A stretch of DNA of 64,000 nt from a virus, in the IMG/VR virus record IMGVR_UViG_3300032294_001228, positions 32,001-96,000 of that record; one strand, given 5' to 3'. The position numbers and the translations under genes are program-made. The notes under the pieces were generated by a model that made no database searches, was not told the DNA's origin, and saw only the letters and a list, made by a program, of their open reading frames with translations. This document shows, in pieces, positions 35,788 to 38,589 of the stretch. The first letter of the stretch is position 1, and the number at the start of each line of letters is the position of its first letter.

Positions 35788-36630
35788 ATGCAAATCACAG
35801 CAGGACATATCAAAGCACTATTTCCCAAATACAAATATCCAGAAGATCTAGCTGAAGCCCTAACAGAATCTTTTGACAAGTATGATATCAATACTGTCAA
35901 TCGTGCGGCAGGTTTCCTAGCACAATGCGGACATGAAAGTGCTGGATTTACTATTTTACAAGAAAACTTAAACTATAGTGCCGACGGTTTGAACAAGATA
36001 TTTAAGAAATACTTTCCAACAGTAGCAGATGCTACACCTTATGCTCGCAATCCACAAAAGATCGCTAACAAGGTCTACGGTGGACGTATGGGCAACGGTC
36101 CTGAGTCCAGTGGTGATGGCTACAAGTTCCGTGGTCGCGGTGCTATCCAGTTAACTGGTCGTGACAACTACACACAGTTTGCCAAAGCTGTAGGTCTTAC
36201 ATTAGATGAAGCTGTAGCAGACTTAGAAACACTTGACGGTGCTATCGAGTCAGCTTGCTGGTTCTGGAAGAAGAACGGCTTAAATGCTATCTGTGACAAA
36301 GATGATCTTGTTCTAATGACTAAGCGTATCAACGGTGGCACTATCGGTCTTGAAGATCGTAAGAAACACTACGAACATGCTAAACACGTATTAGGTGGCG
36401 ATCATGTAGCCGAATCACATAGTGCGCCGGCCGCTACAGAATATGTAACAGTACGTTTAGGAAGTAACAACGACACAGTTAAAGCAGTGCAACGAGCATT
36501 AGGATTAACAGCAGATGGTGCATTTGGTCCTGGCACAGAACGTGCAGTCAAAGCCTGGCAAACTAAAAATGGGCTAGCCGCTGACGGTATCGTTGGTCCT
36601 GCTACTATTAAAAAGATGCTAGGCGAATAA
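35788..36630 (+). CDS. Endolysin: GH19 chitinase-like domain plus peptidoglycan-binding domain
   Basis: FLAQCGHES, ENLNYSA, FRGRGAIQLTG, RINGG; C-terminal ADG.FGPGT..AVK.WQ...GL.ADGIVGP.T. Confidence 0.92.
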   Translation: MQITAGHIKALFPKYKYPEDLAEALTESFDKYDINTVNRAAGFLAQCGHESAGFTILQENLNYSADGLNKIFKKYFPTVADATPYARNPQKIANKVYGGRMGNGPESSGDGYKFRGRGAIQLTGRDNYTQFAKAVGLTLDEAVADLETLDGAIESACWFWKKNGLNAICDKDDLVLMTKRINGGTIGLEDRKKHYEHAKHVLGGDHVAESHSAPAATEYVTVRLGSNNDTVKAVQRALGLTADGAFGPGTERAVKAWQTKNGLAADGIVGPATIKKMLGE

Positions 36631-36631
36631 C

Positions 36632-37078
36632 ATGTGGTTATTACACTTCTTACCTGACAGTTTCTTACATACTATCATTAATATAGTTCTATTTGCAGGA
36701 TTAGGACTTACAGTTATAGGGTTCTTTTTGATAGGATTCATTCCTGGAGCACGTAACTACAAAACATTGGTACAAATTTTAGGTGTTGTTCTGTTAGTAG
36801 CAGGCATCTACTGGAAAGGTGGTTACGGTGTTGAGATGGAATGGCGTGCCCGTGTAGCAGAAGTTGAAAAGAAAGTAGCTATCGCAGAAGCCAAAGCTAA
36901 ACAAGCTAACACTAAGGTACAAGAAAAAATCGTAACTAAGATCGTTAAGATCAAAGAAAAAGCTGAAATAGCCAAAGAAGGCATACGTAGAAATAAAGAA
37001 AAAATCAATGCAGAATGCAAACTCAGCGACGAAGCGGTCGCCGCTTATAATCAAAGTATCATCAAGGAGAAGAAATAA
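36632..37078 (+). CDS. Putative i-spanin (Rz-like)
   Basis: N-terminal TM helices then coiled coil; follows endolysin. Confidence 0.65.
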   Translation: MWLLHFLPDSFLHTIINIVLFAGLGLTVIGFFLIGFIPGARNYKTLVQILGVVLLVAGIYWKGGYGVEMEWRARVAEVEKKVAIAEAKAKQANTKVQEKIVTKIVKIKEKAEIAKEGIRRNKEKINAECKLSDEAVAAYNQSIIKEKK

Positions 37079-37344
37079 TGCGTAACTTACTCCTAGCCGG
37101 TTTATTGTTATTAACAGGTTGTGCTACATCGGTGCCGGTAACTATGAGTTTCCCACAGGCACCAGAAGCACTAGCTAAACCCTGCGATCTATTACTACCA
37201 TTAGATCCCGCTAAACGTGAATTATCAGATCTATTAGAAAATACCACAGACAACTATGCCAAGGCCAAAGAATGTCATGCTAAGAGTAAGGCTTGGTTAG
37301 AATGGTACGAAACACAACGTAAAATATTTGAGGAAGTCAAATGA
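37078..37344 (+). CDS. Putative o-spanin (Rz1-like lipoprotein)
   Basis: Lipobox LLTGC, Pro-rich FPQAPEALAKPC. Confidence 0.7.
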   Translation: MRNLLLAGLLLLTGCATSVPVTMSFPQAPEALAKPCDLLLPLDPAKRELSDLLENTTDNYAKAKECHAKSKAWLEWYETQRKIFEEVK

Positions 37345-37760
37345 AAAAATTAGCTATTGCTTTAACACTAGTCTTACTAACAGGTTGTGCGACTATACAA
37401 CAGAGCACACTTTATCGTGCTTGGAATATGCCTAAGTTTGACAACAATGAATATAGCCAGATCAACACAATCCGTACAGTGGCTAACTTAGGTGCGGCTA
37501 AGTGTGGCACACCCGAAGTAGTGCCTGTGGTAGATAGCCTATTCTACAAGTCAGTAGAATTTAAAAATTATTCATCTAGTATTCCACACAATGAAGAAGT
37601 GATAAAGATGAGTGGTGAACTAGCAGAAATCATCAAAGGACTAAACACGAGATATCATGAGAAGGAACCTGTAAGTCCTTCATATTGTACTCTCAAATTC
37701 GGCACTATTGAGAAAAACGCAGTAACAATACAAAATGTTATAGGAGCAAAACCACGATGA
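37341..37760 (+). CDS. Second lipoprotein in lysis cassette
   Basis: Lipobox LLTGC. Confidence 0.65.
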   Translation: MKKLAIALTLVLLTGCATIQQSTLYRAWNMPKFDNNEYSQINTIRTVANLGAAKCGTPEVVPVVDSLFYKSVEFKNYSSSIPHNEEVIKMSGELAEIIKGLNTRYHEKEPVSPSYCTLKFGTIEKNAVTIQNVIGAKPR

Positions 37761-37951
37761 GTACCGTATCACAAGCACAAGAATTAGATGCACAATATAA
37801 AGCTGGTAATTTATCAGCTAGTGAATATAAAGAACTATTAGAAGATCTTAAACATACTGCTGCCGTAAATGAAGCCGCAGGTGATTTGGCAAAATTAACA
37901 CAGATACATGAAGTATTAGATGGATTAAAGTCTGCCGCTGGCTTAATTTAA
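37757..37951 (+). CDS. Hypothetical protein
   Basis: ATGA coupling. Confidence 0.55.
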   Translation: MSTVSQAQELDAQYKAGNLSASEYKELLEDLKHTAAVNEAAGDLAKLTQIHEVLDGLKSAAGLI

Positions 37952-37960
37952 CCAAATGCA

Positions 37961-37967
37961 ATAAATA
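37961..37967 (+). promoter_or_regulatory. Late promoter motif ATAAATA
   Basis: Upstream of holin. Confidence 0.65.
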
Positions 37968-37998
37968 CTATTATAATAAAGCACTAGGAGCATAGACA

Positions 37999-38289
37999 AT
38001 GACATCAGCAGCAGAACAAAAAACAGCAGATTGGATGACCACTAAGTGGCGCCCATTGATGGCTGTAACATACATGGCTACAATTTGGTTTGACTTCATC
38101 GTAGGTCCAATCATTTTTAACATATTACAATATCTTAATCCAGGTCAAGCTGTATCAAGCTGGACTCCTTTAACACTCCAAGGCGGTGGTTTATATCATT
38201 TGAGTATGGGTGCTATCTTAGGTATAGCGGCATTTACACGTGGTAAAGAAAAGATCGCGGAGATTGAAGCGGGAAAACCTCAGGGGTAG
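37999..38289 (+). CDS. Putative holin (GTA 3TM-holin-like, WRP motif), 96-aa zero-frame product
   Basis: W...WRP.MA..Y...DF...P; hydrophobic segments; GAILG...TRG.EK; at end of lysis cassette. Confidence 0.7.
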   Translation: MTSAAEQKTADWMTTKWRPLMAVTYMATIWFDFIVGPIIFNILQYLNPGQAVSSWTPLTLQGGGLYHLSMGAILGIAAFTRGKEKIAEIEAGKPQG

Positions 38290-38314
38290 GAACAGCCCCG
38301 GACGTAAGTGTTCC
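38271..38314 (+). promoter_or_regulatory. -1 programmed ribosomal frameshift signal
   Basis: In-frame G GGA AAA (38271-38277), 5-nt spacer, pseudoknot S1 GGGGT/GCCCC and S2 GGAACA/TGTTCC. Confidence 0.8.
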
Positions 38315-38510
38315 ACAACAACCTCAATGGTTAAGTCAACCTGCACCAGAGAATAATGTTCCTGAGGCAGCCCCAGAGGTAATTCAAGAGTTTGAAGCGA
38401 CTGAAATCGCAGATACTCAAGAGCTTGTGGAAATGCCTACAGAACCAGAGATTGCAGAAACTCCTGAAGCAGTAGATCCAAATCGCCCAGCGAGACGTAA
38501 GAAAAAATAA
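38277..38510 (+). CDS. -1 frame extension of holin (77 aa; full product about 170 aa)
   Basis: Open -1 frame TSGVGTAPDVSVPQQ...EATEIADTQELVEMPTEPEIAETPEAVDPNRPARRKKK*; no own start; TGA in this frame at 38265-38267. Confidence 0.75.
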   Translation, partial: TSGVGTAPDVSVPQQPQWLSQPAPENNVPEAAPEVIQEFEATEIADTQELVEMPTEPEIAETPEAVDPNRPARRKKK

Positions 38511-38523
38511 TCTAGTTTAGAAC

Positions 38524-38574
38524 TAGACATTAAATAAAAGGTAAGCTATAATAACATATAGTTTACCTTTTTTT
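38524..38574 (+). promoter_or_regulatory. Terminator-like hairpin overlapping a sigma70 promoter
   Basis: TAGACA-17-TATAAT (38524-38552); arms 38536-38550 and 38557-38571 followed by Ts. Confidence 0.65.
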
Positions 38575-38589
38575 ATCAATGGAGTTATA

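Follow-up and report, generated by a model that had tools for sequence, protein, structure and literature searches.

A probable -1 frameshift cassette conserved in a holin-like lysis gene of giant freshwater phages

Holin timing sets the burst size of a phage and is a classic molecular clock, and to our knowledge the partners that regulate holins are made in two ways, from alternative starts or from separate antiholin genes. The holin-like gene considered here closes the lysis block of a stretch of viral DNA of 64,000 nucleotides (nt), hereafter the window, which comprises bases 32001-96000 of IMG/VR record IMGVR_UViG_3300032294_001228. At the 3′ end of this gene a slippery heptamer is followed by an H-type pseudoknot and by an open frame in the -1 register, and comparison with related loci indicates that this is very probably a real, conserved -1 frameshift cassette; a lysis protein made in two forms by this route was found in no paper. 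The whole record measures 118,684 nt and is rated 33% complete by CheckV, and it is therefore a fragment of a giant phage. Sequencing runs that hold near-identical words are mostly labelled as freshwater or lake metagenomes, and the source is an uncultured giant freshwater phage.

Among described systems, lambda G/GT frameshifting takes place on the heptamer G_GGA_AAG, and Xu, Hendrix and Duda, as cited in PMC3091744, are said to have reported in 2004 that the -1 frameshift of tail-assembly chaperones is conserved in tailed phages. The present locus and its relatives use the same slippery sequences (G_GGA_AAG in 10 of 60 loci, G_GGA_AAA in the rest). They also share with lambda a short 0-frame product and a C-terminally extended -1 fusion that depend on one start, a slip placed near the 3′ end of the short open reading frame (ORF) and, as in the counterparts from other tailed phages, a signal conserved across many phages. 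Unlike the lambda product, which is a tail chaperone, the protein encoded here is of a membrane, lysis type; the signal includes a covarying H-type pseudoknot, and its polarity is apparently reversed in some relatives. The frameshifts treated in the available parts of PMC3091744 and PMC4591319 are those of tail chaperones, and the former describes downstream structure as rare at such sites, with none found in P2-like phages.

Structure-stimulated -1 slippage that yields two isoforms with a common N-terminal part is also found in the Escherichia coli dnaX gene, the source of tau and gamma. There the heptamer is A_AAA_AAG and the stimulators are a stem-loop and an internal Shine-Dalgarno element upstream, in place of the pseudoknot found here. 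The shifted frame of dnaX stops at once to give gamma, whereas in the window the shift would give the longer product; an immediate -1 stop is absent from the window and is found in 10 relatives that carry the tail in frame (the L002, L004/L009, L020 and L075 groups). The OrfA/OrfAB genes of the IS3 family yield a fusion protein much as proposed for the window, by bacterial-type -1 frameshifting on a heptamer with a 0-frame stop close by and a pseudoknot behind it, but they use A_AAA_AAG, encode a transposase and are not phage lysis genes.

Two systems concern lysis itself. The dual-start gene S of lambda makes holin and antiholin by alternative initiation two codons apart (PMC3091744, in its available parts). 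As with S105 and S107, one lysis gene would here give two membrane isoforms in a set ratio, whose balance could time lysis; the lambda isoforms differ at the N terminus, whereas those of the window would differ by a C-terminal tail of about 77 amino acids (aa) added by recoding, and any antiholin activity among them would be hypothetical. In the RNA phage MS2, frameshifting is likewise coupled to production of the lysis protein, in that the shift ends coat translation and ribosomes restart on the overlapping lysis gene (Kastelein et al. 1982, via the available parts of PMC10885494). Unlike the case presented here, it produces no fusion isoform and involves no heptamer-plus-pseudoknot cassette. 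No published frameshift in a holin was found in a search of full-text literature as far as it was available, supplementary frameshift tables (PRFect's included) lying outside that search, and the word 'holin' is absent from the covered parts of the PRFect paper and of a 2016 recoding review (PMC5009743).

Programmed -1 frameshifting into a short and a long isoform of the holin-like protein is, on the comparative evidence, very probably what this arrangement serves (coordinates in Table 1). The 3′ end of the 96-aa ORF reads GCG GGA AAA CCT CAG GGG TAG, and its stop codon (UAG 38287-38289) falls inside the pseudoknot, a compact H-type fold with loops of 1, 0 and 9 nt in which the 5′ arm of stem 2 lies within the loop of stem 1. 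A TGA at 38265-38267, 3 nt before the heptamer, closes the -1 frame, which from 38268 on meets no stop until the TAA at 38508-38510; 77 codons follow the slip, for a long form of 93 + 77 = 170 aa. When all 278 heptamers of the X_XXY_YYZ type on the + strand of the window were considered, in any frame, only G_GGA_AAA at 38271-38277 preceded such a pseudoknot, and no heptamer on the - strand of the window had one downstream. Shuffling 38278-38327 with dinucleotides preserved gave a pseudoknot at least this good, 4-8 nt past the heptamer, 13 times in 5000. Stem 1 is present in the nested minimum-energy fold. Rfam 15 gave no match at the pseudoknot and three weak, sub-threshold matches elsewhere. 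Gene calling yields the 96-aa ORF alone and leaves about 220 nt behind it 'empty'. The initial annotation of this DNA had placed the heptamer, the spacer, both stems and the limits of the -1 frame exactly, to the base, and had also predicted a terminator after the -1 tail, which the fold returns as a 15-bp hairpin followed by U7 (dG -16.8 kcal/mol, z -7.8; equalled by 0 of 200 shuffles).

A GGAG word lies at 38259-38262, 8 nt upstream of the heptamer, and G-rich GGNG words are similarly spaced in relatives. It might be an internal Shine-Dalgarno-like stimulator, comparable to that of dnaX, or just the outcome of Gly, Ala and Glu codons.

The 96-aa protein is matched by 432 homologues of 52-168 aa in a large protein collection, where a class of about 91-98 aa is accompanied by a longer one. 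Loci were taken from viral contigs (61) and from metagenome contigs (80), a few contigs being present in both collections; with the window this gave 142 sources, of which 127 were scored, 8 being without the anchor motif and 7 running off the contig. An in-frame GGGAAAR is found in 60 of the 127, the window included (GGGAAAA in 50 and GGGAAAG in 10; 45 distinct 87-nt stretches). It stands at codon 20 or 23 after a conserved ..SMG motif, invariant and in register, and the spacer in relatives of the same type is 4-5 nt by eye. Of the 45 distinct ORFs, 36 have the 0-frame stop directly after the heptamer; in 2 others it is 3 nt further on, and in the remaining 7, which include the window, 9 nt. 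The -1 extension is complete, at 62-93 codons, in 55 of the 60 loci, while 4 run off the contig and one, L079, is interrupted. Comparison across the loci shows the marks of selection on the heptamer, its register and spacing, the pairing of the pseudoknot, the coding capacity of the -1 frame and the C-terminal motif of the tail.

Some individual sequences depart from this pattern. In L079 (1467-1530) a TAA lies in the 5′ arm of stem 2, stem 1 is weakened and the tail frame goes on past the stop; either an error of sequencing or the decay of this copy may explain it. Protein P0022, of 150 aa and known from one contig, reads from its letters as the holin core followed by a +1-frame translation of the tail region, and matches the product expected of a one-base deletion just before the heptamer. 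In more distant relatives (L058:1755-2291 and L059/L060:1718-2272) the holin-like gene shares its end with an overlapping second ORF, of about 160-180 aa. This ORF, whose product has a coiled middle between a hydrophobic N terminus and hydrophobic segments near the C terminus, may be another gene of the holin family. L022 and L024 carry an in-frame form of 128-130 aa in a gene neighbourhood unlike that of the window, and there an ORF of more than 435 aa (L022:1884-3194, L024:1866-3260) starts in an ATGA overlap with the holin stop and continues to the end of the locus. Searches of a phage collection by blastn with the region and by tblastn with the tail gave no match, and a search of it with the holin core returned distant jumbo-phage homologues only.

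The pseudoknot covaries. In an alignment of 49 distinct sequences, with the structure as drawn in the initial annotation and a shuffle control that ignores relatedness, 87.0% of cells were paired vs 77.8% in shuffles (0 of 500 as high) and the covariation score was 0.303 vs 0.136 (0 of 500); when the partners were displaced by 1-3 columns, 29-71% were paired. In stem 2, 5 of the 6 pairs have changed on both sides, 93.2% of cells are paired and 13 distinct arm pairs occur, and the closing pair of stem 1 varies between U-G, U-A and C-G. In the best register all 49 sequences keep at least 4 of the 6 pairs of stem 2 and at least 4 of the 5 of stem 1, and the three that have only 4 of 6 in stem 2 improve, by eye, with a one-base bulge. 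The stems sit in the coding sequence of the tail, and compensating changes therefore swap residues on both sides (G-T...V-P vs E-D...S-S), which in a seemingly disordered tail is hard to explain by protein constraint.

The tail encoded in the -1 frame behaves as a protein. Its 62 available versions (51 distinct) can be aligned, the in-frame tails of the L002, L020 and L075 groups among them, and show G..P and then P.W near the start and DP.RP.RR at the end; an acidic or Pro/Gln/Thr-rich middle leads to a basic cluster at the end. In 44 distinct tails of the frameshift type no stop occurs in the tail frame, vs means of 6.14 and 4.95 in the other two frames, and pairwise differences at codon positions 1, 2 and 3 are 0.341, 0.305 and 0.451, the third position being the most variable. 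ATG, GTG or TTG lies within 16 codons of the heptamer in 0 of the 45 distinct -1 ORFs, 4 of which have no start codon at all, and ahead of the heptamer the frame extends back by just 1-11 codons. The first, conserved stretch of the tail thus has no start of its own, and independent initiation of the tail is rejected. AlphaFold2 (AF2) was run on a natural in-frame relative, L002, with a 79-row alignment. It returned a weak model (mean predicted local distance difference test score, pLDDT, 58.2; predicted TM-score 0.28) with helices at 4-46, 51-59 and 64-90 and no secondary structure after these, and pLDDT in the tail was 45-57, rising only over the last ~17 residues (68-73), which hold the C-terminal motif. 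By this model the tail of the long isoform is probably disordered. By analogy it would suit a cytoplasmic tether that is disordered and ends in a conserved basic stretch, regulatory C termini being generally known from holins. The claims of the initial annotation that the -1 ORF is protein-like without a start near its 5′ end, and that one gene gives a 96-aa and an about 170-aa product by pseudoknot-stimulated -1 frameshifting, gain strong comparative support from these 45 distinct sequences: the alignment of homologues it had called for finds the heptamer invariant, stem 2 covarying and the -1 frame open.

In a freshwater metatranscriptome run (X15), one contig joins the end of a relative's tail (..DDPNRPLR..) to the downstream region, with a loose end before 38501. 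It is no proof of transcription, as DNA can occur in such libraries. The same run leaves about 38116-38499 uncovered, a gap to which no meaning is attached.

Tails homologous to that of the window are found in frame in 10 loci (7 distinct sequences) with ORFs of 176-191 aa, which fall into four groups (L002; L004 and L009; L020, L021, L023 and L108; L075, L080 and L083). Judged by homology, these prove that the tail is a real protein. The initial annotation had regarded tails in frame in homologues as an argument against frameshifting; they do occur, but the argument does not carry over, as these loci have kept the pseudoknot together with a slip site of a second kind. All 10 contain an in-frame N_NNT_TTT followed by AA or AG, 5-6 nt before the retained pseudoknot, and a -1 slip there would read TTT and then TAA or TAG. 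Their pseudoknot also covaries, GGUGCU occurring with AGCAUC or AGCGCC, and GGAGGC or GAAGGC with UCCUUC. The arrangement suggests that the in-frame relatives quite plausibly make the short form (~97-100 aa) by a -1 slip into an immediate stop, in the manner of dnaX. Two of the groups have the canonical G_GGU_UUU. What speaks against a reversal of polarity is that the other two have A_CCU_UUU or A_UCU_UUU, which re-pair poorly at the P site so that only the A-site tRNA re-pairs well, and that the rule was tested on 7 distinct DNA sequences; with poor P-site re-pairing in two of four groups, this part is therefore less certain.

On a tree of the 225-nt core, which is poorly resolved (46 of 114 inner branches open, with long-branch warnings), the in-frame forms with pseudoknot are scattered among the frameshift-type forms, and starred branches force at least 2 changes. 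A protein search with the L002 tail matched L002 itself only, and one with the L075 long form gave 371 proteins of 99-315 aa. Among the 120 of these 371 matches that were listed, 24 of 29 proteins have F followed by S or N at the junction, a count made by eye at the level of protein letters. Scans of viral contigs with P0151 and P0149 yielded no contigs beyond the known set, and scans with L020 and L004 no new lineages of the in-frame class with pseudoknot.

Several observations weigh against programmed frameshifting into a functional tail. The region shows no unusual stability in a nested fold (z -0.02), by a method that cannot score pseudoknots. The G-C core of stem 1 is invariant, so covariation comes only from its closing pair and from stem 2, and the shuffle counts are not probabilities since their control ignores relatedness. 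The tail evolves fast (31,593 non-synonymous vs 11,999 synonymous codon differences), is of low complexity, has no Pfam or PHROG family match and is given no structure by AF2. In one locus of the 60, L079, the -1 frame is interrupted by a TAA where the pseudoknot lies. Wider relatives have the short form only, or an in-frame long form without the pseudoknot, and two isoforms are therefore not essential to the family. The L079 stop, the low complexity of the tail and the existence of in-frame long and of short-only relatives would also suit a decaying remnant, that is, a long gene split by a 1-nt deletion from which only the 96-aa protein is made; the pseudoknot would then be left-over coding sequence, or an mRNA element for pausing during membrane insertion or for stability together with the terminator. 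Against such decay, the 55 complete -1 ORFs have stayed open despite ~45% third-position differences, with 0 stops where 5-6 are found in the other frames, the C-terminal motif is conserved in the -1 frame, and the heptamer is invariant and always in register. The retention of all three therefore argues that this is not decay, and the remnant explanation is rejected as very improbable.

The same long protein would result if RNA polymerase slipped on the G3A4 run and added one base, which would bring the tail in frame without any ribosomal slip. Productive slippage in bacteria is generally taken to need much longer homopolymers, and the run offers only 3 G and 3-4 A, with just 3 A in the 10 of 60 loci that have GGGAAAG; a covarying pseudoknot at a spacing appropriate to the ribosome would have no role in such a process. 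As another route to such products transcriptional slippage is known, and it figures in the title of a review available in part (PMC5009743), yet here it is rejected as a shade less probable even than decay. The G3A4 run at which the frame changes could also hide a homopolymer indel of assembly, the true gene being a single in-frame ORF of 170 aa, and the comparison is one of assembled contigs, not of raw reads. The same arrangement of frames nevertheless recurs in 59 other loci, which stem from many samples and studies and differ in spacer and stop position, with the 0-frame stop directly behind the heptamer in most of the distinct sequences. One independent contig (X3 record 20, 31-letter rule) crosses the heptamer uninterrupted, with no indel recorded from 38013 to 38515. 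An assembly error is rejected as having a negligible chance of being correct. Programmed ribosomal frameshifting thus stays the preferred account of the two frames.

Whether the frameshifted protein is a holin is a separate matter. The window protein stands at the edge of the PF11351 (GTA_holin_3TM) family, as judged by profile: it scores 24.6 bits vs a cut-off of 24.8, thus falling below the threshold, over model positions 57-117 of 123. It also matches PHROG 3427 'holin' (E 1.9e-5). Two hydrophobic segments are found, at about residues 19-46 and 63-80, not the three transmembrane (TM) segments of the model, whose N-terminal third is absent. The loop that joins the segments carries no charge, and Lys and Arg lie next to both ends, N-terminal and C-terminal; under the positive-inside rule both termini, and any C-terminal tail, should therefore be cytoplasmic. 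As is usual for a holin, the protein is small, has membrane segments and ends in a charged C terminus, and its gene lies in one block with those of endolysin and spanins, in the order endolysin, i-spanin, o-spanin, lipoprotein, orf64 and holin-like gene. In 59 other frameshift-type loci, with flanks of 1.2-1.5 kb, the lipoprotein is present in 56, orf64 in 56, the o-spanin in 50 and the i-spanin in 42, and in L004 the holin-like gene follows directly after the o-spanin. The weak profile matches and the conserved synteny together suggest that this protein is probably the holin of the phage.

If the frameshift is real and the protein is instead virion-associated, or another membrane protein, its isoforms would serve assembly or entry and not lysis timing. 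Pointing in this direction, the Pfam score lies just below the curated cut-off with only the last two thirds of the 3-TM model matched, and distant cultured homologues (27-36% identity) stand among structural or tail-fibre genes. The one in PA5oct (L232, 212216-212542) is annotated as a structural protein from electrospray tandem mass spectrometry (ESI-MS/MS) of the virion and is surrounded by structural genes, and the one in Atu_ph07 (L233, 219447-219830) adjoins a tail-fibre gene. These two homologues are only 27-36% identical, however, while within the clade the gene is consistently the last of the endolysin, i-spanin and o-spanin block, many close homologues carry a precomputed PF11351 match, and neither the ORF list nor Pfam or PHROG gave another holin candidate in the block. 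A role outside lysis is accordingly regarded as unlikely, and the protein is treated below as a probable holin.

In the proposed mechanism, most ribosomes would stay in the 0 frame and end at UAG 38287-38289, releasing a 96-aa membrane protein with two helices. Some would pause at the pseudoknot, 5 nt downstream, with the Gly and Lys tRNAs on GGA AAA, slip one base back to GGG AAA and read 77 codons in the -1 frame. The 170-aa product would have the same membrane core and, on the cytoplasmic side, an acidic, Pro-rich tail ending in the conserved basic motif. It is a tentative proposal, somewhat doubtful as yet, that the isoforms co-assemble through the shared core and that their ratio tunes the timing of the membrane hole, in which case either form could be the brake. 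The fixed ratio and the holin/antiholin timer put forward in the initial annotation are likewise hypothetical.

The rest of the block is listed in Table 1. The only match of the 139-aa lipoprotein is weak and lies in the signal-peptide region of a Cor-like exclusion protein family. The product of orf64 has no Pfam or PHROG match; judged by the position of its gene it could be a cytoplasmic holin regulator, and database proteins P0021 and P0023 are gene-call fusions of orf64 with the holin. Upstream of the holin-like gene, AATAAATA at 37960-37967, ~30 nt before the start, resembles a T4-type late promoter motif and is a candidate only, and a sigma-70 scan gave the candidate TTAACC-18-TATAAT at 37948-37977. 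The next Met after the start of the holin-like ORF is residue 13. A rule-based terminator scan of the window did not list the terminator-like hairpin with U7 at about 38536-38575, and no tRNA genes were found in the window.

Table 1. Features of the lysis block and of the proposed frameshift cassette, in window coordinates
Feature	Position	Strand	Basis or remark
Endolysin, GH19 + PG_binding_1	35788-36630	+	Domain matches
i-spanin, Rz-like	36632-37078	+	Profile matches
o-spanin, LysC/Rz1-like	37078-37344	+	Profile matches
139-aa lipoprotein, signal peptide ending in lipobox Cys	37341-37760	+	Between o-spanin and orf64
orf64, 64-aa soluble, helical-looking protein	37757-37951	+	Directly upstream of holin-like gene
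Shine-Dalgarno-like AGGAG	37986-37990	+	8 nt before holin-like ATG; read from sequence, putative function
Holin-like 0-frame ORF, short isoform of 96 aa	37999-38289	+	Last gene of lysis block
Slippery heptamer G_GGA_AAA, X_XXY_YYZ register in 0 frame	38271-38277	+	Sequence
Spacer between heptamer and pseudoknot, 5 nt	38278-38282	+	Sequence
Pseudoknot stem 1	38283-38287 with 38295-38299	+	Four G-C pairs and one U-G
Pseudoknot stem 2	38289-38294 with 38309-38314	+	Six Watson-Crick pairs
Loop 3	38300-38308	+	Followed by 3′ arm of stem 2, 38309-38314
-1 frame extension, 77 codons and TAA	38277-38510	+	Homologous to -1 and in-frame tails of relatives
Tail C-terminal motif D-P-N-R-P-A-R-R-K-K-K	38475-38507	+	80% consensus of 51 distinct tails, DP.RP.RR
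Terminator-like 15-bp hairpin then U7, closing the unit	38531-38575	+	Fold; hairpin and U7 at about 38536-38575

A conserved recoding signal in a holin-like gene would be a third route to a regulating partner. It would also join the small number of -1 frameshifts in genes other than dnaX and those of tail chaperones, capsids and transposases, and would be a rare phage case with a covarying pseudoknot. As gene callers annotate the 96-aa ORF only, protein databases would lack the long isoform of dozens of giant freshwater phages. More speculative than the timing role itself, and rather doubtful, is the broader idea that selection maintains two holin isoforms in the clade and that the polarity of the frameshift has been reversed there at least 2 times, with the pseudoknot cassette acting as an evolvable rheostat of lysis timing and as the recoding counterpart of dual-start pairs. 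Were this true, the reversal of polarity among close relatives would be a natural experiment on the evolution of isoform ratios, and, slippage being dependent on tRNA state and ribosome load, the ratio of the isoforms could couple the lysis clock to the translation of the host.

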